Below the pieces are notes generated by a model. That model had not been told where the DNA came from, ran no database searches, and saw only the letters and a program-made list of their open reading frames with translations. A DNA stretch of 64,000 bases from Dehalococcoidia bacterium (lineage in GTDB: Bacteria; Chloroflexota; Dehalococcoidia; SHYB01), in contig OZ253453.1 in NCBI GenBank assembly GCA_965261455.1, forward strand, positions 3,447,372 through 3,511,371. The letters are read 5' to 3'. Made by a program: the position numbers and the translations under genes. Positions 6,782 to 56,718 of this stretch are shown here, piece by piece (positions within the stretch are counted from its first letter, which is position 1; every line of letters begins with the position of its first letter).

Positions 6782-6783
6782 GG

Positions 6784-7620
6784 CTATTCCCCGGCGAACT
6801 CGGGGTCGCGCTTTTCGAGGAAGGACCGGACGCCCTCCTCGCGGTCGCTGCTCTGGAAGGCGTTGCGGAGGGTGAACGACTCGTACTGAGCGAAGGTCTC
6901 CAGGTCTTGCCGCAGGCCCAGATAGACGGCGCGTTTCGCCATGGCCAGTGCGATGGGCGGGCCCTTAGCGAGGGTCAGCGCGACCTCGCGGGTGCGCTCG
7001 TAGAGCTTGTCGTGGGGGACGACCTCGTTGACCAGACCAATCTCGGCGGCTTCCTTGCTGTCGAGCATCTTGCCCATGAAGATGATCTCCATGGCCTTGG
7101 GCAGAGGCACGATCTGGGGCAGGGTGTAGGCGCCAAGGGCCTCGGGAGGAATCCCCCGCTTCAGCCAGGCCGCGCCGAACTTGGCCTCGGTGGAGGCGAT
7201 GCGCAGGTCGCAGGCCAGGGCAAGGGAGAAGCCGACGCCGACCGCGGGTCCGTTAACGGCGGCGATGACGGGTTGGGGGGCGTGGCGCAGCGCCCGCACG
7301 AAGCTGTCCTGGCCGGTGCGCGGGGTGAAGCGTTTCTTCAGCAAGGGATGTTCGCCGCGGCGAGGCTCCTTCAGGTCTTGGCCCGAGCAGAAGCCGCGCC
7401 CGGCGCCGGTGATCACGAGCACCCTGGCGTCGCTTTGGGCGACGTGCTCGATGGTGTCGAAAATCTCATCGAGCATCCCCGGGGCCGTGGCGTTGAGCCG
7501 TTCGGGACGGTTGAGCGTGATCGTGGCGATGCCGTCGCCGTCGGTATCGAGCAGGACTCGCTCGCTTGCCATGAAGGACTCCCTGGAACAATCGCGCCGA
7601 AGCGCCGTGGCGAAGATCAT
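6784..7620 (-). CDS. Enoyl-CoA hydratase/isomerase (crotonase) family protein
   Basis: 278 aa with crotonase fold motifs (ITGAGRGFCSGQDL, AAVNGPAVGVGFSLALACD). Confidence 0.85.
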   Translation of the reverse strand: MIFATALRRDCSRESFMASERVLLDTDGDGIATITLNRPERLNATAPGMLDEIFDTIEHVAQSDARVLVITGAGRGFCSGQDLKEPRRGEHPLLKKRFTPRTGQDSFVRALRHAPQPVIAAVNGPAVGVGFSLALACDLRIASTEAKFGAAWLKRGIPPEALGAYTLPQIVPLPKAMEIIFMGKMLDSKEAAEIGLVNEVVPHDKLYERTREVALTLAKGPPIALAMAKRAVYLGLRQDLETFAQYESFTLRNAFQSSDREEGVRSFLEKRDPEFAGE

Positions 7621-7666: not shown

Positions 7667-8122
7667 ATGACGGTGGTGATACGCGACGCGGAGGAGGGCG
7701 ACCTGGAGCGCCTACGGGAGTTGTACGCCCAGCTTGCCCCCAGCGGCGACTCCCCCGAGCCGGGCGGCCCGCAGCGGTCGCTGGCGGCCCTTGAAGAGAT
7801 CACGGCGCGTGAGGGAGTCCGCCTGCTCGTGCTGGAGGCCGATGGGCGGGTCGAGGGCAGTGTAGTCTTGGTCATCGTCCCCAATCTGACCCACGGGGGC
7901 AGGCCATGGGCAGTGATTGAGCACATGATCGTCGATGAGTCACGGCAAGGTACGGGGATGGGGCGGCTACTGATCCGCCGCGTCGAGGATATCGTGGCCG
8001 AGGCGGGCTGCTACAAGCTCCAGTTCCTCAGCGCGTGGCGACGCAAGGACACGGCTCACCCCTTCTACGAGGCGATGGGTTACGAGTCGCCGGCGCGGGG
8101 GTTCCGGAAGCACTTCTCTTAG
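7667..8122 (+). CDS. GNAT-family N-acetyltransferase
   Basis: Internal ATG of track ORF 7181..8122. Sequence MTVVIRDAEEGDLERLRELY… with acetyl-CoA motif RQGTGMGRLL. Confidence 0.75.
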   Translation: MTVVIRDAEEGDLERLRELYAQLAPSGDSPEPGGPQRSLAALEEITAREGVRLLVLEADGRVEGSVVLVIVPNLTHGGRPWAVIEHMIVDESRQGTGMGRLLIRRVEDIVAEAGCYKLQFLSAWRRKDTAHPFYEAMGYESPARGFRKHFS

Positions 8123-18392: not shown

Positions 18393-18800
18393 GCATGCCT
18401 CGCTGAGGTGGAGGCGTAGGGGTTGGGAGCGCTTCGGGCGCCCGCGCGCCGCAGGCGCGCGCCCTCTCTTGGTCTCGCCCTAGAGAAACCTTGCGTAACC
18501 TCGTCGCGGAGGGAGCGGGCGCCCACGAGGGGCGCCCCTACGGGAGGGATGGATTCCCGCGAACGCGGGAATGACGGATATGGAGCAGAGGGGAGGGCGA
18601 TTCGCGAATCGCCCCTACGGGGAGCGCGGCGCGGGTTGGCGGGCTTCGATGGGCTTTGGTGGTTGCGAGGGTGCCCCTCATCTCAATCTTCTCCCGTGGG
18701 GAGAAGAGGCAAGACCTCCCGGCCCCGCCCATGCTTGCCCGTGGGCGGTTGTGCAGAGGTCTCCGTTGGGAGAGGGGGTAAGACTTCACCCCGCCGCGGT
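18393..18800. repeat. Cluster of mosaic intergenic palindromic repeat modules (families A/B/C)
   Basis: Contains gggcgcccctacgggagggatggattcccgcgaacgcgggaatgacggatatgg (module B) and cttcgatgggctttggtggttgcgagggtgcccctcatctcaatcttctcccgtggggagaagaggc (module C). Both recur elsewhere in the window. Track ORFs here are artefacts. Confidence 0.8.
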
Positions 18801-20499: not shown

Positions 20500-20944
20500 T
20501 GTCCTTCCCTCTCTCAATCTCTCCCAGAGGGAGAGAGGTTTAAGGTGCTCTCCCAGGGGGTTTAAGGTGCTCTCCCTAGGGGGAGAAAGGTGCTCTCCCA
20601 GGGGGAGAGAGGCTTATGGTGGCCCTCTCTCAGTCTCTCTCAGAGGAGACCTTTACGTAACCCTTGTCGCGAGGGAACGGGCGCCCACTAGGGGCGCCCC
20701 TACGGGAGGAGATGGATTCCCGCTTGCGCGGGAATGACGGATGGGGGCGGGGCCGGGCACTCAGAAGGCGAGAGTGGTGCGCTTCGATGGGCCTTGGTGG
20801 TTGTGAGGGGGCCCCTCATCTCAATCTTCTCCCGGGGGGGAGAAGAGGCCGGAGGGATGGGATGGATTCCCACTTGCGCGGGAAAGACGGATATGGGCGG
20901 GTCTTGCATGAGGTTTCCAGAGGGAGAGGCTTACGGTGTGGCGG
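20500..20944. repeat. Cluster of mosaic intergenic palindromic repeat modules (families A/B/C)
   Basis: Several copies of ccctctctcaatctctcccagagggagagagg (module A). Also module B (…atggattcccgcttgcgcgggaatgacgg…) and module C (cttcgatgggccttggtggttgtgagggggcccctcatctcaatcttctccc…). Confidence 0.8.
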
Positions 20945-21852: not shown

Positions 21853-22113
21853 ATGGGCAAGGCGTGGCAGGTCCAAGACGCTAAGGCGAGGTTCAGCGAG
21901 TTTCTTGAAGCCAGCCTGGCGGATGGGCCGCAGATCGTGACTCGACGAGGCGTGGAAACGGCGGTGCTTCTTCCCATCGAGCAGTGGCGGAGGTTGGAGA
22001 AGATAACGAAGCCGGACCTGAAGGAGTTGTTGCTCGCGCCGGACGCGCGAACCGACTCGCTCACGCCGCCGCGCCGTGAGCATCGTCACCGAACACCCTC
22101 GGCCATCGAGTAG
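21853..22113 (+). CDS. Type II antitoxin, Phd/YefM family
   Basis: 86 aa (MGKAWQVQDAKARFSEFLEASLADGPQIVTRRGVETAVLLPIEQWRRL). Ends 5 nt before the PIN toxin gene. Confidence 0.8.
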   Translation: MGKAWQVQDAKARFSEFLEASLADGPQIVTRRGVETAVLLPIEQWRRLEKITKPDLKELLLAPDARTDSLTPPRREHRHRTPSAIE

Positions 22114-22117
22114 CCCG

Positions 22118-22525
22118 ATGTACCTGCTCGATACGAACGTGGTCTCGGAGCTGCGGCGTCCAAGGCCTCAGAGGGCCGTCTTAGACTGGATCGCGGACGT
22201 GCCCGCGGAGCAGCTCTTCATATCCGCGGTCACGGTTGGGGAGATCCAGGCAGGGATCGAAATCACTCGCGTGCAAGATGGGGCGAAGGCGGAGGAACTA
22301 GAAGCCTGGCTCGATAGAGTCCTCGCCTCCTATAGCGTCCTGTCGATGGACGCCGCTGCTTTCCGGGAGTGGGCACGGCTCATGCACGGAAAGTCGGACA
22401 CCATAACCGAGGACGCCATGATCGCGGCGACGGCTATCGTTCACAGGCTGACGGTGGTGACTCGGAACGTGGGTGACTTTCGCCAACTTGGCGTGGCGTT
22501 GCAGAATCCCTTCGACAACGAGTAG
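22118..22525 (+). CDS. vapC: Type II toxin VapC (PIN domain)
   Basis: MYLLDTNVVSELRRPRP… with PIN acidic residues (D5, E…, D near the C-terminus in …VTRNVGDF). Internal ATG of track ORF 22076. Confidence 0.85.
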   Translation: MYLLDTNVVSELRRPRPQRAVLDWIADVPAEQLFISAVTVGEIQAGIEITRVQDGAKAEELEAWLDRVLASYSVLSMDAAAFREWARLMHGKSDTITEDAMIAATAIVHRLTVVTRNVGDFRQLGVALQNPFDNE

Positions 22526-22526
22526 C

Positions 22527-22745
22527 TCCGATTCGGCCCTCTCTCAGTCTCTCCTTTTGGAGACCTTTGCGTAACTCGGCGGGCGGGCTTCAGCAAGGTC
22601 GCGCGGTCCCCGCCTCCCCCCGCCCTCTCTCAGTCTCCCCCAGAGGGGGAGAGGTTTAAGTGAATGCCACCTCCGCTCCGCCCACCAGGACCCCAGTCGG
22701 TTGTGCAAAGGGCTCCAGAGGGAGAGAGGTTTGTGGTGATCGCCG
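22527..22745. repeat. Intergenic repeat cluster (module A copies)
   Basis: ccctctctcagtctctccttttggagacctttgcgtaact…, ccctctctcagtctcccccagagggggagaggtttaagtg, …ccagagggagagaggtttgtggtg. Confidence 0.75.
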
Positions 22746-24673: not shown

Positions 24674-25663
24674 ATGGACTCCAAGCTGGGGCTTGTGCTC
24701 TACCACGGCTTTGAAAGCGGGGCGGAGTTGGCGCGGTACGCCGAGATCGCGGAGCGCGAGGGGTATGAGAGCCTGTGGATGACGGAGCGCAGCGGCCACG
24801 AGGAGGCCTTCGCGACGCTGGGCTACGCGGCGGCGTCGACGAGCCGGCTGCGGCTGGGGCTCGGCGTGGCCAACGCCTACTCGCGCCATCCGGTGCTGCT
24901 GGCGATGGCGGGCGCGACCCTCGACCGGCTCTCCGGCGGCCGCTTCATCCTGGGCTTGGGCGCGAGCGACCGCGATGTAATCGAGGGGAAGCTGGGCATC
25001 CCGCACGAGCGGCCGATCGCGGAGCTGGAACGCGCCGTCCGGTCGCTGCGGGCCCTGTTCGCAGGGGAAACGGTCGATGAGGAAGCGGGGCGGAGCAAGA
25101 TACGCGGCGTCCGGCTGGGCGTGCATCCCGTGGCCGAGCCGCTGCCGCTCTATGTGGCGGCGGCGGGGCCTAGGGCGCTGGCGATGGCGGGTCGGACCGC
25201 CGACGGGATCATCCTGAATACCTACAGCCCGACGTCGTACGTGCGGTGGGCGGTCGCGACGGCGCGGCGGGCGGCGGAGGAGTCGGGGCGCGACCCCGCG
25301 TCGCTCGACGTGGTGTGCATGCTGGTGGTGCGGCTCACCGACGATCCCTCATCGCTCTACCCCATGTTCAAGGAGCGGGTGGCGCGGCTGTTGTCGGAGC
25401 CCCACGGCGGCGAGCTGCTGCTGAAGGACAGCGACTTCGATCCTGTCCTAGCGGGCCGCGTCCGCGAGGCGGCCTCGGACGGGGGGACGAAGGCGGCCGC
25501 CACGCTGATTCCCGAGGCGATGGTGGAGGAGTTCTACGTCCTCGGCGACGCGGCCCGGTGCAAGCAGCGCATCAAGGAGTACCGGGCGGCGGGGGTGGAC
25601 CAACCGCTGCTGCTGCCTCGGCTGGAGGACTTCGAGGCGGTGGCGTCGGCGTTCGCGGGGTAG
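24674..25663 (+). CDS. LLM-class flavin/F420-dependent oxidoreductase
   Basis: 329 aa (…ESLWMTERSGHE…). Its last 128 nt are duplicated at 28119..28248. Confidence 0.85.
   Translation: MDSKLGLVLYHGFESGAELARYAEIAEREGYESLWMTERSGHEEAFATLGYAAASTSRLRLGLGVANAYSRHPVLLAMAGATLDRLSGGRFILGLGASDRDVIEGKLGIPHERPIAELERAVRSLRALFAGETVDEEAGRSKIRGVRLGVHPVAEPLPLYVAAAGPRALAMAGRTADGIILNTYSPTSYVRWAVATARRAAEESGRDPASLDVVCMLVVRLTDDPSSLYPMFKERVARLLSEPHGGELLLKDSDFDPVLAGRVREAASDGGTKAAATLIPEAMVEEFYVLGDAARCKQRIKEYRAAGVDQPLLLPRLEDFEAVASAFAG
25537..25663 (+). repeat. Direct repeat copy 1 (3' end of the LLM gene) bounding the HEPN-STAND island
   Basis: ctacgtcctcggcgacgcggcccggtgcaagcagcgcatcaaggagtaccgggcggcgggggtggaccaaccgctgctgctgcctcggctggaggacttcgaggcggtggcgtcggcgttcgcggggtag. 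Five mismatches versus copy 2. The 3' 85 nt or so are identical. Confidence 0.85.
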
Positions 25664-25714
25664 GAGCGCGGGGCCATGGACGCCTAAGCCGGAAACCGCC
25701 GAACCTGGCCTTCG

Positions 25715-28048
25715 CTAGGCGTTAAGGTAGCCGCGCAAGTCAGGGAATCGATACAGAAGTCGCTCTTTCTCCGACGCTGCATCGGCATCGTGGGGGTGTT
25801 CTTTCCCCCAGCTTATCAAAGACTGAGATAGCATCTTGAGAGAGCGATGCCGTTGATCGGCCTCTTGGTGAGCTTCACTGATGCGTGCCAGGCGCTCGTA
25901 GTTCAGCACGATAGCACGACATACCTGACTGCGGGACTGATATGGACCATGCTCGAACTCTTCCGGATCCGAGAGTGCATCCTTGAGATGAGTCTCCGCT
26001 TTACGTGCTTCTTGTATTGCTCGGTCGTACTGAACTTGTTGGTACAAGTCCTGAGCCAATCGGCTTCGAGCATATCCAGCCAGGAAGGAAAGCCGCTCGG
26101 AGGGGCCGACGTTCTTGAGGCCGTTTTCAGCAGACCGGGCTGCTGCAGTCCACTCTTGTCGATCACCCTCCATGCTTGACCAGTGCCTGTAGGTTTCCAT
26201 GTTTGAGGACTTAAACTTCGATGCCCGCTCGAAGTGGTAGCGGGCGTCGGTGTAACGGGGCTGCGGTTTCCAGGCTTTGTAAACCCAGCCTAGCATTCCA
26301 TGCAGGTCAGGGTTGTCGGGGTACACGTTCAAGGCGTTGAGAAGAGTCTCTCGGGCATCAGAGTGTTTGTCCAATTTCACTAGGCTGATGGCTTGCCTAA
26401 TATATTGGCCGATACGCCCACGGTCTGCAGGTGACGGTCGCGCCTTGTCCTTGAAGAGCTTGAGAGCGCTTGCTATGCGGCGAGTCAGGTCCGATCCTTC
26501 ATAGACGTCCCGCACCAGTTTTCGCGTGTTCGAATTCAGTGAAAACCTGGACTGTCCTTCGACGAGGTGCGGGGCAGGCAACAAGAATAACTCCTGTAGC
26601 TGCTCAACCGAGTCCTTGCATTCACTTTCCGATAGGTCAGCGACATCCTGTATTTCGGCCAGGGATATCTCTCCCGGATAGAGCGCGCAAGTCAGTAGTG
26701 CCTTCTGGGCTGGAGGTGAGAGCATGTCGAACTCTCTTCCCAAGGCATACCTACGAGCGTCCTCCCCTCCATTATCACGCCATTTATTTGTCGCCATATG
26801 AGGGGTCTCACCCACCTTGCACAAACGCAGCAAGTCTTGAACAAAGAGCGGGCTTCCTTCGCACACCTTCAAGATTTCACGGATGGTGGAACGTGTAAAT
26901 TGACTGGGTTCTAAACCGTACATAGCCACGCGGCTCTTGACAAACTCTATTCCGTCATTTTCAACCTCGAAACCCTTCACCTGTGTCCGTTCCATGGCAT
27001 AGCGAGCTCGGCGTGAGGTAAGCAGGAACTTTGACGGTGTCTTCGTGCGATTCAGAAAGAAGGATACCGCCTCGTCGCTTTCAAGAGAGTCTATGTCGTC
27101 AAGGATAACCAAAGCTGGTAGCAACGAGAGTGATTGACGACACTCGCCTTCTTTCTCTGGAATACCCATGCCTTCGATGTCGGGGCAACCATAGGCACGG
27201 AGGATACAGTCGATGGCGGAATCAAGATTCCAGAAATCCGGTGCTTCGATGTCGACGGTACGGCCTGCTTCGAACCGGCGAGCCTTGGCGCTCATCCAAA
27301 TGATGTATTGAAGGTCAGGAGGTGGATCTTGTGTCACTGACACAGCAAACTGGTAGGCGATGGCGGTTTTGCCTTTCCCTCCGTCGCCCGCCAATAGCCA
27401 GGCGCTGGAATAAGGATCGTTGACCCACTCATGTAGTTGTTGGAGCTCCGCTTTCCTACCGACGAATTGCAGCGCCACCGATTCTCGTGGTGGCAAGGTG
27501 TTCTCCAGCAATCTCTTCTCTGCTATAGCTGCGCTGTTGAATGCTATGCCGCTGATGGATTCGTAGAGAGTTAGAATCTGCTTAGCGGCTTCCATATCAA
27601 TATGGTCCAAGATACGCCTAGCAGAATCCAGCAACATGAGTGCGTCTTTGTCATCCACATCAGCTTCTGCTGGGTGTCCGACGATCGGATTCCGAAGGGT
27701 GGCCACAGTTCTTGCCCACCCAAGGACCGCTTGTCGCCTATCTTTTGTGGGAACTGGCGCCTCTTGATGACTGGGAAATAGGTCGTTGAAGTATTTCTCG
27801 AATAAGTTGAAGAAGTGATGCGCATCTAGCAGATCTGCATCATCCCTAAGTGGTGTCTCAAGTTCACCGGTCGCTCGGACCGTTGCAGCTTTTTCCTTGA
27901 TCCCGGGCCATTCCTTTTGGAATGATGCGGCAATCCTCGTTTGCCAGTCGCCCGGGTATTTTTCGCTCAGCATGTTGCGAATGTGGTTCACGACGGCATT
28001 GCGATAGATTCGGAGTCCGTCAAAGCAAATTGTGTTTGTGGAGGGCAT
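25715..28048 (-). CDS. Tripartite conflict-system-type protein: N-terminal Swt1-like HEPN RNase domain, STAND (NB-ARC-like) P-loop NTPase, C-terminal TPR repeats
   Basis: 777 aa. HEPN R-x5-H in …ATLRNPIVGHPAE…. Walker A LLAGDGGKGKTAIA, Walker B LVILDDIDSL, sensor LLTSRRA. TPR-like C-terminus (…LLNALNVYPDNPDLHGMLGWVYKAW…). Markedly lower G+C than the flanks. Confidence 0.8.
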   Translation of the reverse strand: MPSTNTICFDGLRIYRNAVVNHIRNMLSEKYPGDWQTRIAASFQKEWPGIKEKAATVRATGELETPLRDDADLLDAHHFFNLFEKYFNDLFPSHQEAPVPTKDRRQAVLGWARTVATLRNPIVGHPAEADVDDKDALMLLDSARRILDHIDMEAAKQILTLYESISGIAFNSAAIAEKRLLENTLPPRESVALQFVGRKAELQQLHEWVNDPYSSAWLLAGDGGKGKTAIAYQFAVSVTQDPPPDLQYIIWMSAKARRFEAGRTVDIEAPDFWNLDSAIDCILRAYGCPDIEGMGIPEKEGECRQSLSLLPALVILDDIDSLESDEAVSFFLNRTKTPSKFLLTSRRARYAMERTQVKGFEVENDGIEFVKSRVAMYGLEPSQFTRSTIREILKVCEGSPLFVQDLLRLCKVGETPHMATNKWRDNGGEDARRYALGREFDMLSPPAQKALLTCALYPGEISLAEIQDVADLSESECKDSVEQLQELFLLPAPHLVEGQSRFSLNSNTRKLVRDVYEGSDLTRRIASALKLFKDKARPSPADRGRIGQYIRQAISLVKLDKHSDARETLLNALNVYPDNPDLHGMLGWVYKAWKPQPRYTDARYHFERASKFKSSNMETYRHWSSMEGDRQEWTAAARSAENGLKNVGPSERLSFLAGYARSRLAQDLYQQVQYDRAIQEARKAETHLKDALSDPEEFEHGPYQSRSQVCRAIVLNYERLARISEAHQEADQRHRSLKMLSQSLISWGKEHPHDADAASEKERLLYRFPDLRGYLNA

Positions 28049-28118: not shown

Positions 28119-28248
28119 CTACCTCCTCGGCGACGCGGCCCGCTGCAAGCAGCGGATCGAGGAGTACCGGGAGGCGGGGGTGGACCAACCGCTGCTGCTG
28201 CCTCGGCTGGAGGACTTCGAGGCGGTGGCGTCGGCGTTCGCGGGGTAG
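28119..28248 (+). repeat. Direct repeat copy 2 (displaced copy of the LLM gene 3' end), distal border of the island
   Basis: ctacctcctcggcgacgcggcccgctgcaagcagcggatcgaggagtaccgggaggcgggggtggaccaaccgctgctgctgcctcggctggaggacttcgaggcggtggcgtcggcgttcgcggggtag. Confidence 0.85.
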
Positions 28249-28258
28249 GCGTGCGGCG

Positions 28259-30133
28259 CTAGCGGTTGCCTTCGACCACTACGGTGATGATGTCGATCTG
28301 GTGATACTTGCGGTGCTGCACGGAAGAGGCGTAGTGCCGCAGTAGGCGGAATGAGATCTCGCGGTCGTCCTGGATCTCGGGCTGATCGCTCAGGTACGCC
28401 TGCCGGTCTTCGAGGTTTTCTTCGTCCGCGGCAGCCGCGAACTCCATCTCGATCTTTCCATTGATGCGGCGTGCGTTGATGATCAAGCTTCGTTTGTCGC
28501 CGTCTTGGTCCTGAGGCAGCAAACTCTCCAGCGTCTCCTCACCGGCTGAACGCAGCCTGTCCGTTGAGGCCTCGTTCCAGCCCGCCTTGGAGGCAACGTC
28601 GCTCAGGAACGCGTCTATTTGGGGAAGCGCGGCGACATTCAGCTCTACGTTCAACCGTCTGCGCCGGGAGCCGCCAAGCTCCAGCAAGAGAGTGAAGGCG
28701 ATCAAACTCACGGCGCCAACGGTCAGGCCGTTGCCAAGGAGGGTTTCTAACGTCCCGCTGAGGACGTCGGAGAAGATCAGGTCGTTCTGGAAGCCTACGC
28801 CCAGCCAGAAGGAGACACCGACCGCGAGAGCTTTCTTCGGGTCGAGGCCGTCGCCGATGACCAACTTCATGCCCTGCACGAACAGCAACGCCAGTGTGAC
28901 GGTCACATAGGCGCCGAAGACGGCGCCGGGGATGGCGGTAATGAGGGCTATCAGCTTGGGAAGGAAGGCCACCGCGATGAGAATGGCCCCGCCGTAGACG
29001 CTGATGCGGCGCGCGGCGACCCCGGTGATGAGGGTCCGCGGGGCATTGCTCGGTGGGGCCATGTTGGGGAGCGATCCAAGGGCGGCGGACATGAGGTTGG
29101 TGAGGCCGATGACATTCAACGTGCCTTGGACGACGCGGAAATCGGCGGCGCGCGGCCTGCGCCACGAGACCTGTTGAATGGCAACCATGTCGCTAATGCC
29201 GTAGAGCGTGGTGGAGAGGGTCACGATGATGAAGCCGGGCAGGAGGCCCCAGAATTCCGTGCCCAGACCGAAATCGAAGTTTGGCCGCGCATCGAGGGGC
29301 AGGCCGATCCAGGCCGCGTCGAGGAAGGGCTGAACGTCAAAGAGGCCGAACGGCGCTGCAACGACACAGCCGGCCACGATGGCAATGACCGGCGTCCACT
29401 GCTGCAAGATAGGGGTGCCAAATAAGCGCAGCGCGATAAGGAGGGCGAACGTCGCTCCCGCGATGGTGGGAGCGGCATGGCTGGCCGCGCCTTCGGGGGT
29501 TGCCGACAGCCTGCTGAGGAGGACCGACATGACGGTGCCCGCCAGCAGCATGAGGACGGAGCCGGTGACCGTCGGGGTGATGATGCGGCGCAAGAGGGAG
29601 AGCCTCGAGACCAGCACGAACTGAAAGATCGCGGAAACGACGATGAGGCTCGACAGCATGGCGGGTCCGCCCGCCACCAACGCGCTGATGGCGACCGCGA
29701 TGTAGGCGGAGCCGTTGGAGACGCCCAGTGGATACCCCGCCCCGAATCGCCAGATTCTGAAGGACAGAAGGATGGTGCCGAATCCACATATCGCCAGGGA
29801 GCAGAAAAAGACCCACGACAGGTAGCTTTCGGGTTGGCCGCTTGCCTGAACGATGATGGCGGTGGAGGCGGCCATCCCCGACAGCCGGCTCATAACGCTC
29901 TGGAAGCCCTGGCCAAGGGCCACCATGGGAGGCGGCTCTTCGTCCGGCTCGTAGAGGATGTAGTCGTTTGTCTGCGGCGCGGCCAAGTCCGTTCTCGAGT
30001 TGCTGCTTGTGGGGACCGCTTCCGTTGACGGCGCTTTCAGGGCCGGGATACGGGACGGGCGGTGGGATAGCAGACCGCCGATGGCGGCACACCCGCGGAA
30101 GCGGCGGCGGATGGTGGGCGGGGACCCCCTCAA
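28259..30133 (-). CDS. Nucleobase/anion permease-family membrane transporter (NCS2/SulP-like core) with a C-terminal cytoplasmic domain
   Basis: About 12 predicted TM segments rich in G/A/L/I, then a soluble tail of about 150 aa. The first 69 codons are low-complexity, so the start is probably the internal ATG near 29926 (MVALGQGFQSV…). Confidence 0.65.
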   Translation of the reverse strand: MRGSPPTIRRRFRGCAAIGGLLSHRPSRIPALKAPSTEAVPTSSNSRTDLAAPQTNDYILYEPDEEPPPMVALGQGFQSVMSRLSGMAASTAIIVQASGQPESYLSWVFFCSLAICGFGTILLSFRIWRFGAGYPLGVSNGSAYIAVAISALVAGGPAMLSSLIVVSAIFQFVLVSRLSLLRRIITPTVTGSVLMLLAGTVMSVLLSRLSATPEGAASHAAPTIAGATFALLIALRLFGTPILQQWTPVIAIVAGCVVAAPFGLFDVQPFLDAAWIGLPLDARPNFDFGLGTEFWGLLPGFIIVTLSTTLYGISDMVAIQQVSWRRPRAADFRVVQGTLNVIGLTNLMSAALGSLPNMAPPSNAPRTLITGVAARRISVYGGAILIAVAFLPKLIALITAIPGAVFGAYVTVTLALLFVQGMKLVIGDGLDPKKALAVGVSFWLGVGFQNDLIFSDVLSGTLETLLGNGLTVGAVSLIAFTLLLELGGSRRRRLNVELNVAALPQIDAFLSDVASKAGWNEASTDRLRSAGEETLESLLPQDQDGDKRSLIINARRINGKIEMEFAAAADEENLEDRQAYLSDQPEIQDDREISFRLLRHYASSVQHRKYHQIDIITVVVEGNR

Positions 30134-30227: not shown

Positions 30228-30514
30228 ATGGCGGGCTACGTGATCACTGAAGTTGAGATAACGGACGCGGAACGGTACGCGGAGTTTCTCGGGCAGGTGA
30301 CGGCAACGGTTGAGGGTCACGGGGGCAAGTTCATCGCGCGGGGCGGCGCCATTGACGTCGTCGAGGGCGATTGGACGCCTTCGCGGCTCGCGATACTGAA
30401 TTCGACAGCGCCGAGCAGGCGAAGGCGTGGCTGAACTCTCCCGAGTACACCGCGCTCAACGAGCTTCGCACCAGCTCCGCCAACATCAACATGGTGGTCG
30501 TCGAGGGCTTGTAG
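30228..30514 (+). pseudogene. DUF1330-family protein with an apparent 1-nt deletion frameshift near 30390
   Basis: MAGYVITEVEITDAERYAEFLGQV…GDWTPSRLAIL, then the frame shifts. The continuation (E)FDSAEQAKAWLNSPEYTALNELRTSSANINMVVVEGL* is in the +1 frame. Confidence 0.55.
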
Positions 30515-30537
30515 CTCCGCCCTTCGTCCGCGCCGTC

Positions 30538-30585
30538 CTATTCCCGCGGCACGCCGCCGGCCTCGAATTCGGTGAGGGCGGCTTT
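30538..30585 (-). repeat. Degenerate displaced copy of the amidohydrolase (31296..32720) 3' end, distal border of the VapBC cassette
   Basis: The minus strand would encode KAALTEFEAGGVPRE*. The real gene terminus at 31296..31343 encodes KAALNEFEAAGGPRGE*. Confidence 0.6.
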
Positions 30586-30595
30586 GCGCGGCTAT

Positions 30596-30997
30596 CTAGG
30601 GGGTCTCTAGGCCCTCGGCGAGAGCGGCCCCCGCCAGTTTTCTATCCAGCGTGGCCAGTGTCGTTCCCAGCCGTTTGGCCAACTCCAAGTACAGGGCATC
30701 GTAGAAGGACAGGCCATGTTCTCTCGCGAGATTGAAGGCCGCCTGGAGGTTGGTGTCACCGTCGGTGCGTATGGGCAATGCCTTTAGGGAATCCAGACGC
30801 TCCGTGGTCCCATTCTGGGACACTCGGCCCCGACGCTCCGCTGCCAGCAGCGCGTTGCGCACCTCGTCGTGCCAGAGCGGCGGCACGATCGCCCCATCCC
30901 GCCGGAGCCGCGTCAACGCGTCGGCGGCCCTTGGTTCAAACTCGTCGTCCAAGAGCCAATCGGCGGTGATCGACGCATCGAGAACGAGACGGCTCAT
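30596..30997 (-). CDS. vapC: Type II toxin VapC (PIN domain)
   Basis: MSRLVLDASITADWLLDDE… with the PIN acidic quartet. Overlaps the antitoxin by 4 nt. Confidence 0.85.
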   Translation of the reverse strand: MSRLVLDASITADWLLDDEFEPRAADALTRLRRDGAIVPPLWHDEVRNALLAAERRGRVSQNGTTERLDSLKALPIRTDGDTNLQAAFNLAREHGLSFYDALYLELAKRLGTTLATLDRKLAGAALAEGLETP

Positions 30998-31245
30998 ACG
31001 CGGCGGCCCTCGCGGTGGGCGGTCACGATTTCGTCGAGGGACATTCCGGTGGGCTCCCAACCGGCCCGCAGTTGTAGGAACCGGTCCACGGCTGCCTCGC
31101 GATCGGCCCGGGCTTGGGTGTGGGCCGGGACCAAGTGGGCGATGGTCGCGCCGTGGCGCGTGATTGCGACGGTCTCGCCGTGTTCGACACTTCGCAGGAG
31201 CTCGGCGAGGCGTGTCTTTGCTTCCGTAGCTTGAACTTTACGCAT
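30994..31245 (-). CDS. Type II antitoxin, Phd/YefM family
   Basis: 83 aa (MRKVQATEAKTRLAELLRSVEHGETVAITRHGATIAHLVP). Confidence 0.8.
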   Translation of the reverse strand: MRKVQATEAKTRLAELLRSVEHGETVAITRHGATIAHLVPAHTQARADREAAVDRFLQLRAGWEPTGMSLDEIVTAHREGRRV

Positions 31246-31295
31246 GACGCACTTCCAACCGGTTAGTTTGACCAGTTTTATTGTAGCAGCTCCGG

Positions 31296-32720
31296 CTACT
31301 CGCCGCGCGGCCCGCCGGCCGCCTCGAACTCGTTGAGGGCGGCCTTGACCCAGGCGAGGTCGTCGGTGGCGGCGCGTTGGCGAGCCGCTTCGGGGTCGAT
31401 GCCGTAGACGCGGGCGGCGTTGAGGCCGAGGATCTTGGCCTTGATGCGCGGGGTGAGCTCGGGGTAGCCGTGGCGCTCGCGCAATTCCTGGGGGATTTGG
31501 AAGGCGCGGAAGGCGTCGATCAGGGGCTGGGGCGAGCCGTACCAGATTGAATCGCTGCCCCAGAGGACGTTGTCTTCGCCGACGGCGAGGAGGAGCTTAC
31601 CGAGGACGTGGGCGGCCTCGCGGGGGCGGCGCACGAGGACGAACCAGGTGCTGCCAAGCTCGGCGTAGACGTTGGCGCCGGGCGGGATTCCGGCGTCGGC
31701 GAGGCTCTTCACGAGGCGGTCCGTCCCGCCGCCGGACTGGTCGTAGGGGCCTTCCTCCTCGTCGGCCACGGGGGTCTCGTAGCCGGAGTGGTAGACGAGG
31801 AACTTGATGTCGGGGAAGGCCGCGGCGGCGGGGCCGACGTCGCGGGGCGAGCCGGCGGGGGCGAGGGCGCTGAGACCCTTGTGGGCGCAGACGATCCCGA
31901 CGCCGAGCTCGCGGCTGCGTTCCAGCAGGGGCAGGCCGTGGGCCTCGTCGTCGAGCTGCCAGCCGGGTTCGCCGTTCCAGCCGTGGGCGGTGTAGACCTT
32001 CCACGCCACGGGCTTGTTGCGTTCCTTGATCCGGTCGAGGCGGTCGATTTCGCCTGGCGCGTTGGGATGGACGATGGCGTGGCTGAGGAGGCGGCCGGTG
32101 CCGGCGAACCGGTCGATCAGCTCGCGGGAGCCGGCGATCTCGGGGTTGGTGAGGATGTTGCGGCGCTCGTCGCCCGGAGCCGAGGTCAGCACCGCCACCG
32201 CCGTCTCACTTTCAAGGAAGACGTGGCGGAGGTAGTTGGTGAAGTCAAGGTGAATGCGTGGGTCGAGGCCCTTCCAGCGGTCGGGGGCGACGTTGCGGAT
32301 GAAGCCCATGACGCCGGCGACGCCGTGGGCTTCGGCGCGGTGCCGCGCGACATAATGCGTCTGCACGTCGATGACAAGCTCGTCGCCGGCGAAGGCGGCG
32401 TTGGCGGCCTCGGGATCGGTCTCCGCCTCGGGTGGGACGTGGTAGTAGCCGCCGCCCCAGGCGTCGTCGATGGCGCGGAGGGCCGCTGCGCCGCCGCGGC
32501 GGCTCTCCGCGAAACGGCGTTGGTCAAGCAGTGTGCGGCTCTCGGCCACGGCGCGGGCGGCAGTCCGTCCTACAGCGGCAAGGTCGCGCTCCGACCAGAG
32601 GAGCGGGCGGAACTCGTCGTTGCCGCGGCGCTGGAGGACAAGCGGCAGGGGCGGGGTCGTCATGCGGCGCATTCTAGCGCACGAGGTGCCCCGCGCCGTT
32701 AAGAAGAAGGCCCCCGCCAC
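31296..32720 (-). CDS. Amidohydrolase-2 family metal-dependent hydrolase
   Basis: 474-aa ORF (GTG at 32720 per the track). The real start is probably the internal Met about 17-20 codons in. Sequence …VIDVQTHYV…, …HSGYE…. Confidence 0.8.
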   Translation of the reverse strand: MAGAFFLTARGTSCARMRRMTTPPLPLVLQRRGNDEFRPLLWSERDLAAVGRTAARAVAESRTLLDQRRFAESRRGGAAALRAIDDAWGGGYYHVPPEAETDPEAANAAFAGDELVIDVQTHYVARHRAEAHGVAGVMGFIRNVAPDRWKGLDPRIHLDFTNYLRHVFLESETAVAVLTSAPGDERRNILTNPEIAGSRELIDRFAGTGRLLSHAIVHPNAPGEIDRLDRIKERNKPVAWKVYTAHGWNGEPGWQLDDEAHGLPLLERSRELGVGIVCAHKGLSALAPAGSPRDVGPAAAAFPDIKFLVYHSGYETPVADEEEGPYDQSGGGTDRLVKSLADAGIPPGANVYAELGSTWFVLVRRPREAAHVLGKLLLAVGEDNVLWGSDSIWYGSPQPLIDAFRAFQIPQELRERHGYPELTPRIKAKILGLNAARVYGIDPEAARQRAATDDLAWVKAALNEFEAAGGPRGE

Positions 32721-34534: not shown

Positions 34535-34831
34535 GTGACCGATATGCAAGTAAAACCCCGTAAGCTGCCCACACTTTTCAACCTGCCTCGGTCTCTTTCA
34601 GTGAAAGGGCTCATTGAAGAGTCCTTGGCCCCAGGCGAATTTGAGGTCACTCTGAATTTCGGGGACGCGGAGTTCTATATCCTGGCGCCAGTCTCCAAGG
34701 TCAACCTCGATGCCGGTACTTTGGAAGTAAACCTTGTCGGAGAGACTGAAAACGAGTTTTGGGTGAGTTTCCCTGGGGAGGTCGAGAACGGCATGTCCAC
34801 CGCTCTCGTACCGAAGAAGTTCCTGAAGTAG
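34535..34831 (+). CDS. Hypothetical protein (98 aa)
   Basis: Lower-GC ORF lying 12 nt upstream of the dCTP-deaminase-like gene. Confidence 0.45.
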   Translation: MTDMQVKPRKLPTLFNLPRSLSVKGLIEESLAPGEFEVTLNFGDAEFYILAPVSKVNLDAGTLEVNLVGETENEFWVSFPGEVENGMSTALVPKKFLK

Positions 34832-34843
34832 AGCGAAGGGACG

Positions 34844-35395
34844 ATGCGGCTCTCCCGGCCATCCATAATCAGGGAGTTGGATTCCGGGCGATTGTCATTC
34901 GATCCTCCGTTGGAGCCAGGCCAGCTCGGGGCCTCTTCGATCGATCTGCGCTTGGGAGAGACATTTACCCATCTTGATCGCGAGTTGGCCGAGGAGCGGG
35001 GTGCGGGCGCCAGAGTCCACTGGTACGTACAGGACGCGAAGTGGGGTCTTTTCGCCAAGAAGTACGGACGAACCCAACACATTGCTGTGGGAGACGAGAT
35101 TGAATTGACGCCCGGTAAGTTGATTCTAGGGTTCACTCAAGAGTATGTCCGGATCCCGCAGACCCTAGCCGGCCGGGTCGAAGGCAAGAGCGGCATCGCG
35201 CGGCGCGGCCTGTTGATTCATATCACGGCCCCGACAATTCAAGTCGGCTTTGAGGGACAGATACAGTTGGAGCTTTACAATCTTGGGCCTGCGCCGCTGC
35301 TGCTTCTTCCCGGAAAGCCCATCTGCCAACTTGTGTTGGAGCAGGTCACGGACACCGAGCAGTATGAGGGGCAGTTCTCGAAGCAGCGTGCGTAG
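34844..35395 (+). CDS. dCTP deaminase (Dcd) / dUTPase-fold family protein
   Basis: MRLSRPSIIRELDSGRLSFDP…SIDLRLG… and …GRVEGKSGIARRGLLIHITAPTIQVGFEGQIQLELYN…. These align to the Dcd motifs GRSSLAR and VLEFYN. Visibly lower G+C. Confidence 0.8.
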   Translation: MRLSRPSIIRELDSGRLSFDPPLEPGQLGASSIDLRLGETFTHLDRELAEERGAGARVHWYVQDAKWGLFAKKYGRTQHIAVGDEIELTPGKLILGFTQEYVRIPQTLAGRVEGKSGIARRGLLIHITAPTIQVGFEGQIQLELYNLGPAPLLLLPGKPICQLVLEQVTDTEQYEGQFSKQRA

Positions 35396-38934: not shown

Positions 38935-39170
38935 GCGCCGGTGCTATGGTGAGCGCACCACCCCAGCGATAGCATCGCTGGCCCGACGCTCCCATCCGGG
39001 GGCGTCTCTTTGTGTGACGAGCTTCTTTCTGTCTCTTGTATTAGTAGCATGGCGCTGCTGGCAATCCCTAACGCCGGTGCTATCCGGTGTTATAGTTAGC
39101 ACACCCCCCCAGCGATAGCATCGCTGGGCCGACGTCCCCACCCGGGGGCGTCTCTTTTTGCCCTTGACAC
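38935..39170 (+). repeat. Two tandem units of about 85-95 bp, each with a perfect hairpin cagcgat-agc-atcgctg plus a terminator-like GC hairpin and T-tract. Candidate small RNA or leader elements
   Basis: Unit 1: ccggtgctatggtgagcgcaccaccccagcgatagcatcgctggcccgacgctcccatccgggggcgtctctttgtg. Unit 2: ccggtgctatccggtgttatagttagcacacccccccagcgatagcatcgctgggccgacgtccccacccgggggcgtctctttttg. Confidence 0.5.
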
Positions 39171-41384: not shown

Positions 41385-41600
41385 CAGCGCGTACCCTCTC
41401 TCAATCTCCCCCAAAGGGGGAGAGGCCGGAGGGGAGGGCGCCCACAAGGGGTGCCCCTACTAGAGCCGCAGGGCGTGGGCCGGATGGGCTTTGGTGGTTG
41501 CGAGGCGGCCCCTCATCTCAATCTTCTCCCGTTGGGAGAAGAGGCAAGACCTCCCGGCCCCACCCATGATTGAGCCTGCGGGCGGGTCGTGCAAAGCACT
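41385..41600. repeat. Intergenic repeat cluster (modules A, B, C)
   Basis: ccctctctcaatctcccccaaagggggagaggccggagggg …gggcgcccacaaggggtgcccctac… cttcgatgggctttggtggttgcgaggcggcccctcatctcaatcttctcccgttgggagaagaggc. Confidence 0.8.
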
Positions 41601-44184: not shown

Positions 44185-44330
44185 TGTTTGGTTGTTTTCT
44201 TACTCTCTCTCCCCTGAGGGAGACCTCTACTTAACCTTGCCGTGGAGGAAAGGCGCCCTTCGGGCGCCCGCGCGCCTGTGGCGCGCGCCCTCTCTCTAAT
44301 CTCCCCCTGAGGGGGAGAGGCCGGAGGGGG
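44185..44330. repeat. Intergenic repeat cluster (module A plus a GC palindrome)
   Basis: …ctctctcccctgagggagacctctacttaacc… ggcgcccgcgcgcctgtggcgcgcgcc ctctctctaatctccccctgagggggagaggccggaggggg. Confidence 0.75.
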
Positions 44331-54257: not shown

Positions 54258-54351
54258 GGTTGGGAGAGTCGGCGTTGCCCGGCAGCCCGGGCCCGTTTGA
54301 CGCTAGGCCGCGGGGCGCGGCGTGTCAAGCGCGGCGCTTCGGCGCACCACA

Positions 54352-54392
54352 AAGAGAGAGGCGGCCCCTGGGGACCGCCTCTCCTTGCGAGT
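54352..54392 (-). terminator. Terminator hairpin downstream of the ABC substrate-binding protein gene
   Basis: The minus strand reads gagaggcggtcccc agg ggccgcctctc followed by tctttgtgg. Confidence 0.45.
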
Positions 54393-54407
54393 CTGTCTGT
54401 TGGCGGG

Positions 54408-56435
54408 TCAGTTACTTCCGGGGACGTAGTTCGGCGAGCCGCCGTCGGTCTTGTCGCCGAAAGGCGTGAAGTCCCGGTCGATCCAGAGTTGCTCCATGTC
54501 CTCGACGACGTCGGCGACGGTGCAGCACTGGGTCAGCGGCATGTTGCGCAACGAGGGCCACCAGGAGTGGAAGCGCTTGGTGCGGAAGAGGGGGACGAAG
54601 ATGCGGCGTTCGAGCAAGTCGATCTGGATCTCCTCGGCGATGGCCAACTGTTCGTCGAAGGTCCGGGCTTGGAGGAAGTCTACCCAAAGCTGACCGACTG
54701 GGCCGAGGTCCCAGTGCTCGGTGAAGTACCCCTCGTCGTTGAACGTCGGGCCGTACTGGAGGCGCATGTTGGCGCCGGGGAAGGGGGAGCCCGAGAAGAG
54801 GAAGAACCAGCCCACGTCCCAGTTCTTGGTGCGCAGCTCGTCGAAGTCGCTCGAGCCGGGGATCACGAGACCCTCGCCGGTGGGCACGACCCAGATGTCG
54901 GCCAGGGAGTCGATGGCGATCTGCATGGCCTCCTGGGAGGAGAGGCGGGCGACGAACCGCAGCTCAAGCGGATTGTCGGGGCTGAAGCCGGCGGCTCTCA
55001 TGAGCTGACGGGCGGCGAGGACGTCGCGGGCGCGGTCGACCTGGTTATCGGCGTAGCCGGGGCGGCCCTCGAACATCTGTCGAGGCAGGGCCCAGGCGCC
55101 GTTCAACTCGGCGGGGATACCGACGCCGTGGAGGACGATGGCGGTCTCCGGGCCGTAGGCGAGGTCGCGGACGGCGAACCGGTCGACGGCGATGTCGATG
55201 GCTTCACGGACACGGGGGTCCCTGAGGGCCGGGTTGCGGTTGTTGAGGAACAAGGAGTTCAAGGTGGACGCCATGTTCGCATGTTGCCAACCGGGGATGG
55301 AGTTGGTCAGCTCGGCGTTTCGTCCCGCCAAACGGTTGGTGACGACGGGCCGCTGCCAGAGGACGTTGCCCGAGGTGAAGGCGCCGATGATCGCGGTGGT
55401 GTCCGAGATGATGAAGATCTCGATGGCGTCGAGGTAGGGGATCTGCCGCCCCGCGGCGTCGGTCTTCCAATGGTCGGGGCTGGCTTCCATGGCGAACTTC
55501 ACGTCCGCCTCGGAGGAGACGAAGCGGAAGGGCCCGGTACCGTTGCCCTTCTCGTTGACATCGCCTGGCCTGACGTCGGAGGGGAGGATGTAGAGCGTCC
55601 GAGTGAGTTCGAGGAGCTGGTTGAAGAACGCGCTGCTGAACTCCTTGAGGCGAATTTCGACGGTGGTGTCGTCGATGGCGACGGCCGCGTCGACGACGGC
55701 CATGGCGGCGGCGTTCCCCGGGTCACGGAGCCTCGAAGGGGCGCCGCCGTCGCCTTCCGTCTGACTCTCATACTTCTCGGCGTTCTTCATCCGGTCCATG
55801 CTGTAGACGACATCTTCGGCGGTAAAGGCGGAACCGTCGTGGAACGTGACGCCCTCGCGGAGTTTGAAGGAGTAGACCTTCCCGTCGGAGCTCAGGGACC
55901 ATTCCGTCGCGAGGTCGGGGACGGCGCTCGCCCCGTCGAATTTGCTCGGTTCGATGAGCTTGTCGTACATGGGGCGGATGGGGGTGACGATGCCGGTGCT
56001 GATCCGCAGGAATGGATCGAGGCCGCGGGCGTTCAGTTGCTGCACCGCGGTGAGGGTGCCGCCGCGGATGGGATCGACGCCGGGAACCGCGGTGGGCACC
56101 GGCACGGGCGTGGCGGTGGGGGCGCGGGTCGGGGGTACGGCGGTGGGCGTGGCCCCGGGCATGGAGGTGGCCGCTGGCATGGCGGTAGCCGCGGGCATGG
56201 CGGTGGCCGCTGGCATGGAGGTAGCCCCGGGCATGGCGGTGGCCGCTGGCATGGCGGTAGCCGCGGGCATGGCGGTAGCCGCGGGCATAGCGGTAGCCGG
56301 CGCGGCCGTCGGCTGCGGCGCGGCCGTGGGTTGGGGTGCCTCGGTGGGATCGCCGCCGCCGCACGAGGCGACGATCAGCAGCATGACCCCGAGCGCGGCG
56401 ACAAACGAGAAGAGTCTGCGGTGCCGTGTGAGCAT
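54408..56435 (-). CDS. ABC transporter substrate-binding lipoprotein, family 5 (peptide/nickel, DppA/OppA-like)
   Basis: Lipobox LIVASCGG. (ATAMPA)n linker encoded by 18-nt tandem repeats. SBP_bac_5-type body. Confidence 0.85.
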   Translation of the reverse strand: MLTRHRRLFSFVAALGVMLLIVASCGGGDPTEAPQPTAAPQPTAAPATAMPAATAMPAATAMPAATAMPGATSMPAATAMPAATAMPAATSMPGATPTAVPPTRAPTATPVPVPTAVPGVDPIRGGTLTAVQQLNARGLDPFLRISTGIVTPIRPMYDKLIEPSKFDGASAVPDLATEWSLSSDGKVYSFKLREGVTFHDGSAFTAEDVVYSMDRMKNAEKYESQTEGDGGAPSRLRDPGNAAAMAVVDAAVAIDDTTVEIRLKEFSSAFFNQLLELTRTLYILPSDVRPGDVNEKGNGTGPFRFVSSEADVKFAMEASPDHWKTDAAGRQIPYLDAIEIFIISDTTAIIGAFTSGNVLWQRPVVTNRLAGRNAELTNSIPGWQHANMASTLNSLFLNNRNPALRDPRVREAIDIAVDRFAVRDLAYGPETAIVLHGVGIPAELNGAWALPRQMFEGRPGYADNQVDRARDVLAARQLMRAAGFSPDNPLELRFVARLSSQEAMQIAIDSLADIWVVPTGEGLVIPGSSDFDELRTKNWDVGWFFLFSGSPFPGANMRLQYGPTFNDEGYFTEHWDLGPVGQLWVDFLQARTFDEQLAIAEEIQIDLLERRIFVPLFRTKRFHSWWPSLRNMPLTQCCTVADVVEDMEQLWIDRDFTPFGDKTDGGSPNYVPGSN

Positions 56436-56718
56436 TCTTGCCTCCTGATAAGGGGCGCCTTCAAAGCGCGTCCTCTGAAGTCTCACCCGCGAGGACGCGC
56501 AGAACGCCCGCAGTCGGCACGATAGCAGGGGGCTTTCGCTTCTGTCAATGCGCGTAGGCGCAGCCCGCGGAGGGCGAAATCGGCATGCTTGACGCTCCCA
56601 GAGGGGCGTACTACAGTTCGCGCACGCTCACGCGCCGGCGGAGCGCGCCCGCGGCCCAGGCGTCTATCCGACTAGGTTTGGAAGGAGTGCGCCTCACCGG
56701 CGCTCCGGTTCCCGCCTC

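Follow-up and report, generated by a model that had tools for sequence, protein, structure and literature searches.

How does a small toxin-antitoxin operon come to lie between two convergent genes, with the last codons of one of them present on both of its sides? This question is raised by a stretch of 64,000 nucleotides from a Dehalococcoidia bacterium (contig OZ253453.1, positions 3,447,372 to 3,511,371 of the forward strand), called here the window, in which a VapBC cassette separates an amidohydrolase gene (31296..32720, minus strand; Amidohydro_2, PF04909, E 3.1e-14, with syntenic orthologues) from a convergent DUF1330 gene (30228..30514, plus strand). The analysis indicates that the cassette was almost certainly inserted within the last codons of the amidohydrolase gene, the resident gene end being displaced to its far side. 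As regards the mechanism, the evidence leans somewhat towards an insertion anchored by homology and independent of any integrase, that is, a Campbell-type single crossover or a process with one-sided homology.

A repeat search in the window returned a direct repeat of 42 nt with 86% identity, whose copies lie at 30545-30586, beyond the cassette (the distal copy), and at 31306-31347, minus strand, in the functional terminus of the amidohydrolase gene (the proximal copy). When the 42-mer was scanned against both strands of the whole window, the distal copy was identical at 36/42 positions and the best score elsewhere was at most 28/42; for random 42-mers the best scores averaged 25.9, and only true repeats reached 36 or more. 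Thus, the repetition of the amidohydrolase end is not due to chance, and the degenerate copies of this 3' end that the initial annotation had described at the borders of the VapBC pair are real, alignment of the two regions placing their similarity well above the background. The functional end is translated as (K)AALNEFEAAGGPRGE*, with the K codon at 31344-31346; the interval first assigned to it, 31296-31343, began one codon late. The distal copy (30538-30585, minus strand) would read KAALTEFEAGGVPRE*, and it is non-coding, because an in-frame stop lies three codons upstream and it has no start codon. The tail ...FEA-x-G-x-PR is specific to the amidohydrolase lineage of the window.

To establish which of the two copies is the resident one, the window has been compared with a series of strain loci, taken from long-read metagenome contigs carrying close relatives of VapC, in which the gene order SDR, amidohydrolase, slot 1, DUF1330, permease, slot 2 and luciferase-like monooxygenase (LLM) is conserved. 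At slot 1 the VapBC pair is an insertion/deletion polymorphism among strains. Class A (the window and loci L019-L028, 11 alleles) carries the cassette and a full distal copy, and L067 has a class A-type cassette whose distal copy is mostly deleted, an independent partial deletion. Class B (L029-31) has a cassette 93% identical, with about 17-19 nt of the native terminus behind vapC, while class C (L065 and L066; VapC 82% identical) carries the cassette after the amidohydrolase in a lineage lacking DUF1330, with no distal copy. In L041 a membrane-protein gene of 167-175 aa (6437-7200) lies over the 5' half of the cassette and is fused onto a C-terminal remnant of VapB, ...ADREAAVDRFLERRASWEPTGMSLDEIVTAHREGRRL*; in this allele vapC and the distal copy are gone and DUF1330 is cut to 48 aa. 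A survey of related loci for cassette-free alleles, as the initial annotation had proposed, has been carried out and yielded two: L042, with a single clean amidohydrolase end, and L001, the closest cassette-free genome, whose cassette-type gene end (..CGCGGTTAG) adjoins a remnant of the displaced copy, namely its last 13 nt. L001 was considered as the ancestral empty site and rejected, since a cassette-type end next to a piece of the displaced copy is the scar left after loss of the cassette.

The L042 allele bears on the direction of the event. Its amidohydrolase ends in ...GGCGTGCCGCGGGAATAG, after which come a spacer of 23 nt and the stop of DUF1330, and this arrangement is identical to the distal copy and spacer of the window, where the native spacer between the convergent genes occupies 30515..30537. 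L042 belongs to the same population as the window, nucleotide identity between them being 92-99% across the flanking genes (95.5-98.2% in the amidohydrolase). The proximal copy ends differently, in ..CCGCGCGGCGAGTAG, unlike the native end. Two types of amidohydrolase end can thus be distinguished, a resident type (..CCGCGGGAATAG) and the cassette type found proximally (..CGCGGTTAG); in the window the cassette-linked end (..C GGC GAG TAG, 31296..31305, minus strand) differs from the resident GG GAA TAG. The position of the amidohydrolase stop relative to the -10 box of the cassette is constant within a few nucleotides in classes A, B and C, including the 93% and 82% relatives, which means that the cassette is accompanied by the last codons and the stop; this cassette-linked stop is not present in L042. 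Taking into account both the identity of the L042 end and the linkage of the proximal end to the cassette, the distal copy, 48 nt long and non-coding (30538..30585, minus strand), is the resident terminus pushed aside, its 3' part and the spacer matching L042. The displaced copy is therefore the end of the same amidohydrolase, as had been supposed, and not that of a separate decayed gene.

Once displaced, this gene end decays by deletion as junk DNA. Two of the 11 class A alleles (L024 and L027) carry frameshifting indels in this polymorphic stretch, and a decay series can be drawn from the full copy (class A, 11 alleles), through the copy of about 17-19 nt (class B), the mostly deleted one (L067) and the remnant of 13 nt (L001), to its complete removal (L041). 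In several strains patches have been exchanged between the proximal and the distal copies, which points to gene conversion between them.

The cassette itself encodes a pair predicted to be a type II toxin-antitoxin system of the VapBC kind (Phd/YefM plus PIN), on the basis of its domains, acidic residues and gene overlap. The antitoxin gene vapB (30994..31245, minus strand; 83 aa, Phd/YefM, PF02604, E 2.2e-10) lies directly upstream of the toxin gene vapC (30596..30997, minus strand; 133 aa, PIN, PF01850, E 1.6e-11), and the two form a bicistronic unit that overlaps at ATGA (30994-30997). Among 10 relatives, the VapC residues D7, E45 and D100 are invariant and D118 is conserved in at least 90%. 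The leader of vapB (31246..31295, minus strand), conserved in VapBC relatives of 74% identity from other genomes and occurring once in the window, contains an extended -10 box (TGcTACAAT, 31288-31280), an operator-like inverted repeat (about 31275-31259) and a ribosome-binding site (GGAAG, 31256-31252). No -35 element was found in it, and a promoter scan returned no canonical -35/-10 pair. The predicted operator-like repeat, placed between the -10 box and the ribosome-binding site, is kept in the 74% relatives and is a perfect CTAGT..ACTAG in L032. A linker of 10 nt (ATAGCCGCGC; 30586..30595, minus strand), invariant in all class A alleles, separates the stop of vapC from the displaced terminus. 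A breakpoint within the last codons of vapC, considered because class A proteins have 133 aa as against 135 aa, was dropped, the C-terminal tail being variable across the family. A search of viral contigs for the cassette gave no match, and JGI metagenomes gave at most 44% identity for matches covering most of VapC, together with a few short partial matches. The VapBC proteins are themselves ordinary; it is the insertion scar and the population pattern that deserve attention.

The same geometry is found at the neighbouring slot 2, compared in the window and in loci L019-L031 and L042. Here, a repeat of 141 nt with 94% identity (25534-25674 and 28119-28259) surrounds a gene for a STAND NTPase (NB-ARC/TPR by Pfam; 777 aa; 25715..28048, minus strand), a low-GC cargo (49-57%, against about 70% in the flanks). 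The first copy is the functional 3' end of the LLM gene (25534..25674, plus strand) and the second is a displaced LLM terminus (28119..28259, plus strand), which lies beside the permease stop as the gene end does in empty alleles; 125/130 coding positions are identical between them. The proposal that the STAND gene shares the repeat geometry of the VapBC cassette is thus confirmed. Both LLM copies fall within population diversity and their last 76 nt are identical, so that neither is marked as that of the donor. In strains that are otherwise syntenic, slot 2 appears in four states, namely STAND, HEPN_Toprim_N (447 aa), a Ymh-family gene (302 or 247 aa) or empty, the permease and LLM stop codons being about 10 nt apart in the empty state. 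The displaced LLM fragments beside the permease stop measure 34, 117-125 or 141 nt, with one length class per cargo type, and the three different cargos begin 0-2 nt from the LLM stop. In the "empty" allele of L024 the LLM has 335 aa instead of 329, due to an in-frame filler of 18 nt at 7791-7810 (PRL[DGRKIHM]DFEAV), of which a 17-nt piece matches the antisense strand of the HEPN_Toprim_N cargo gene exactly, which indicates that illegitimate or template-switch recombination is active at this hotspot.

A leader of the vapB type (-10 box, operator-like repeat, ribosome-binding site and ATGCGT) has also been observed before the unrelated Ymh cargo (L019, 7865-7905; L025, 7867-7907; and L027), where it looks like the leftover of an earlier VapBC-like occupant that was overwritten. 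This leader was considered as a common cassette boundary and rejected, since it is the promoter/operator of the family itself and is kept in distant relatives.

Not every accessory module of the window shows the signature. The initial annotation had counted a possible third case, and the DCD module does not support it, because the end of the adjoining HIT gene is not repeated; neither the DCD module nor a second VapBC pair (21853-22525) has flanking gene-end repeats. The duplication of gene ends is accordingly recurrent, not general. The DCD module (34535-35395) is of low GC content, begins 3 nt past the HIT gene stop, comprises an ORF of 98 aa and a dCTP deaminase-like gene, and is present or absent among strains.

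The population data bear on the spread of the cargos after their establishment. In the 11 class A alleles, nucleotide diversity is 0.000 in vapB (0/252 sites segregating) and 0.002 in vapC (3/402 sites), with values of 0.033 in the amidohydrolase gene, 0.044 in the distal copy, 0.039 in the 23-nt spacer and 0.036 in DUF1330. Diversity is near zero in the cassette, against about 3.5% in its flanks. Between strains the cassette shows 99.5-99.8% identity and its flanks 92-99%; at slot 2, the HEPN_Toprim_N cargo is 99.4-100% identical between strains, and the LLM gene 93-96% in most of the same pairs. Near-invariant cargos within diverse flanks therefore represent young haplotypes that have spread through a strongly recombining population. 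Recombination breakpoints have also been detected inside DUF1330, in agreement with ordinary homologous recombination. Of the two routes first suggested, allelic replacement from a donor is consistent with this spread.

The cassette is compact, being made up of a promoter with an extended -10 box, the operator-like inverted repeat, the two genes vapB and vapC and some 10 nt more, and it brings a short gene end of its own with a stop codon. The resident end has been pushed to the far side, where about 41 nt of coding sequence, together with the native last codon and its stop, stay attached to the spacer and DUF1330. With regard to the initial insertion, it is proposed that the incoming DNA would have been the 3' end of an amidohydrolase gene joined to the cassette, coming from a donor with a different downstream context, and pairing with the recipient would have been possible only through the gene end. 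Either a single crossover of a circularised fragment, or one homologous and one illegitimate join, would then duplicate the stretch of homology, the insertion being made by the general recombination machinery of the cell with no dedicated integrase. The same process would have acted several times at the permease/LLM slot, leaving fragments of 34, about 120 and 141 nt. Once in place, the cassette would be passed between strains by ordinary homologous recombination, and would later be lost or trimmed by deletion; its retention is probably favoured by the toxin-antitoxin function.

Several observations argue for such an insertion. No recombinase or transposase was found among the called genes within about 5 kb in the 30 alleles surveyed, tRNA and Rfam searches gave no match anywhere in the window, and the ends of the cassette carry no inverted repeats. 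Neither is there a fixed repeat boundary, the fragments at slot 2 measuring 34, 117-125 or 141 nt and the amidohydrolase repeat 42 nt. It is because recombinase, attachment (att) core and fixed boundary are all lacking that integrase independence is favoured. It has been reported that a single crossover of circular DNA generates target duplications of 109-950 bp, and that classic homology-facilitated illegitimate recombination (HFIR) leads to deletions (PMC3240628). The repeats seen here are homologous to the target, of arbitrary length and associated with no element-encoded enzyme, as Campbell-type or one-sided insertion would leave them. As for the donor, class C carries the cassette and its gene end in a context without DUF1330, which suggests that donors with a different downstream context exist; one of this type would share no right-arm homology with a DUF1330-bearing recipient.

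Some points weigh against this explanation. Neither a circular intermediate nor a donor genome has been seen, and a stretch of about 41 nt is near the minimum for RecA-dependent pairing, so that a single crossover there would be rare. The onset of three cargos within 0-2 nt of the LLM stop has a site-specific look, and it obliges homology-anchored insertion to invoke junctions inherited from the donor or strong selection. A trans-acting recombinase may be encoded elsewhere in the genome, outside the 64-kb window. Finally, L042 could have arisen by precise excision of the cassette, through recombination between the two copies, in which case there would be less reason to regard the distal end as original.

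In a different and rather doubtful reading, the single-gene defence and toxin-antitoxin cargos of these Dehalococcoidia populations would be integrase-less mobile cassettes, each with a copy of the last 30-140 nt of a host gene as a portable attachment site. Recombination between the copies would excise a circle, which would re-enter naive strains by a single crossover in the same gene end. Such a cycle would explain the near-invariant cassette beside outer sequence as diverse as the genome at large, the mosaic copies and the clean L042 allele.

The main rival is a site-specific integration in the style of e14 or phage 21, where each cargo would be an integrative element or what is left of one, its attP site mimicking the 3' end of the target, and where the tyrosine integrase that made the crossover within the gene end has since been lost by decay or acts in trans; this seems unlikely, even if the geometry is the same as that of e14 in icd of Escherichia coli. 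In strain MG1655, one border of e14 falls 165 nt before the icd stop, and at the far border there is an icdC pseudogene of 165 nt with 13 differences. As with e14 and phage 21 in icd, here the insert supplies a diverged 3' end that leaves the reading frame intact, the copy on the insert side completes the gene, and the displaced resident end forms a direct repeat. However, e14, a prophage of 15 kb, encodes an integrase and an excisionase (intE and xisE) and uses a fixed att site, whereas the inserts described here measure 0.7-2.4 kb, contain no recombinase and are bounded by cargo-specific repeats of 34-141 nt. The best argument for an integrase is the position of the three cargo junctions at the LLM stop. 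It is also consistent with this rival that 74%-identical VapBC relatives, the closest ones outside the cassette classes of slot 1, are located at island edges beside recombinase genes. These relatives (L036-L040) adjoin large serine recombinase genes in divergent orientation, at the edge of islands with DNA methylase, Vsr, FRG and GmrSD. Nevertheless, they have no flanking repeats and, to our knowledge, large serine recombinases would not be expected to create long direct repeats. Moreover, neither slot contains an integrase or excisionase, nor is there one within about 5 kb in the 30 alleles, and the cargos are single genes. The length of the slot 2 repeat depends on the cargo, and the 34-nt fragment stops before the only motif common to both termini. 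The dedicated att/integrase system of the initial annotation is thus not borne out, neither slot showing a recombinase, a constant repeat length or a shared core.

That common motif, GASTTCGAGGCGG, was evaluated as a shared att core of the amidohydrolase and LLM termini. Both termini share GA(S)TTCGAGGCGG in the same register to their stops (EFEA and DFEA; 25628-25640, 28213-28225 and 31319-31331), and six matches were counted against 0.67 expected. The other matches are gene-internal and encode (N/D)EFEA-type peptides and, given that the 34-nt LLM fragment ends before the motif, it was judged a codon-level coincidence and rejected. Two further mobile elements were discarded. An insertion sequence or transposon does not agree with the lack of terminal inverted repeats and transposase or with duplications that vary from 34 to 141 nt. 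An integron cassette does not agree with the absence of a nearby IntI, the sequence behind vapC being the amidohydrolase tail, which by eye has no attC motifs (RYYYAAC...GTTRRRY) and folds no better than shuffled sequence.

A secondary local rearrangement, in which the cassette entered the spacer with no duplication and the repeat arose later, independently of acquisition, by unequal crossing-over or slippage between sister or homologous chromosomes, is improbable. It would accommodate the class B and C alleles, which carry the cassette with little or no distal copy, and the 13-nt tandem-like structures that L001 shows at this GC-rich end. However, the 17-19 nt of native terminus kept behind vapC in class B make it look like a deleted class A form and not a precursor, and L067 has lost part of its distal copy independently. 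In addition, the proximal end is unlike the native one and moves together with the cassette, and three other cargos show this geometry again at slot 2.

It is very improbable that the repeat has been kept for a function, such as a terminator or RNA-stability hairpin of the vapBC transcript, or a regulatory site. Although an imperfect palindrome with GAATTC at its centre lies within the distal copy, this copy folds no better than shuffled sequence (z of -0.2 to -1.3), no terminator-like site was found in it, and it has suffered indels or deletions in several lineages that keep vapBC; a structural or terminator role was accordingly rejected as not significant. The weakest alternative, chance similarity or the leftover of an unrelated decayed gene, can draw only on the many weak repeats of a region with 65-70% GC and has practically no probability, being refuted by the 42-mer scan, the lineage-specific tail and the L042 gene end identical to the distal copy.

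Among known systems, the conceptually closest process is the C-terminal displacement that was reportedly described by Jackson in 2009 for effector-immunity loci of Rhs, contact-dependent inhibition (CDI) and type VI secretion systems (T6SS). In those loci, as in the one studied here, an incoming module with upstream homology brings a new 3' part and the old part is orphaned downstream. For them, one-sided homology with illegitimate recombination, followed by homologous spread, has been proposed (Kirchberger 2017, PMC5361080). The parts displaced there, toxin tips or immunity genes, are functional, and it is the variable part that serves as payload; here, by contrast, the 16-codon tail of a housekeeping enzyme has been displaced, which has no function, and the payload consists of a separate operon. 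Like type II VapBC modules viewed as small mobile "selfish" cassettes, the present one has overlapping genes, an operator-like leader and a patchy presence between close strains. Slot 2 also resembles the defence hotspots between core genes, in that STAND, HEPN_Toprim_N, Ymh or nothing occupies the site in syntenic strains. Hotspots of enterobacteria and Pseudomonas usually hold integrase-bearing mobile elements or simple replacements; here, by contrast, each cargo type has its own displaced gene-end fragment. Campbell-type insertion-duplication, which is known mainly from laboratory plasmids, shares with this locus the absence of an element enzyme and repeats of arbitrary length equal to the homology carried.

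This kind of insertion scar is therefore known, and what is new is the absence of an integrase, the very small cargos, and the fact that the pattern recurs, with repeats of varying length, at two neighbouring convergent gene pairs of one population. We know of no description of a natural and recurrent use of gene ends of 41-141 nt to seat single defence or toxin-antitoxin genes.

Other features of the window can be mentioned. The DUF1330 gene has a frameshift, a 1-nt loss of A in CTGAAATTC near 30399, by which its Pfam matches are divided between two ORF pieces in different frames; L023, L042 and L001 have intact orthologues. The frameshift was found in the window only, and could correspond to a real pseudogene or to a long-read homopolymer error. 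The listed amidohydrolase ORF is the longest possible one, and its true start is probably further downstream. The second VapBC pair, also Phd/YefM-PIN, lies between an SDR gene and an LLM paralogue, with repeats like repetitive extragenic palindromic (REP) elements at its borders. These belong to a family of dispersed intergenic palindromic repeats with the core CCCTCTCTCAATCTCTCCCAGAGGGAGAGAGG and longer shared blocks of 57-65 nt (18460-18701, 20507-20896, 22535-22735, 41394-41431 and 44289-44326), which have the look of REP elements or of miniature inverted-repeat transposable elements, and which flank a two-gene LLM/RraA block as well as the second VapBC pair. An array of 18-nt tandem repeats (GGCATGGCGGTAGCCGCG-like; 56108-56323, nine overlapping 72-nt registers) is contained in the long ORF 54297-56525. 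Two intergenic copies of 77 nt (38938-39014 and 39084-39160), 146 nt apart and 87% identical, each include hairpin-like palindromes and have a T-rich stretch at the end, and an Rfam search with them gave no match.

As to the organism, syntenic orthologues of the amidohydrolase with 88-93% identity occur in Dehalococcoidia metagenome-assembled genomes, and homologues with about 75% identity in Candidatus Poriferisocius and other Acidimicrobiia; judging from these relatives, the host is probably a sponge-associated Dehalococcoidia bacterium. In its population, strain-resolved alleles show small modules entering packed convergent gene pairs while both genes stay unbroken and with no visible mobile-element machinery. 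The decay series, from the full copy through the partial one to the 13-nt scar, provides a relative clock of gain and loss. With respect to annotation, short pseudo-termini beside toxin-antitoxin or defence genes should not be called genes. If this mode of acquisition is general, displaced gene ends would be a simple signature for recognising recent integrase-independent acquisitions and defence hotspots in uncultured bacteria.

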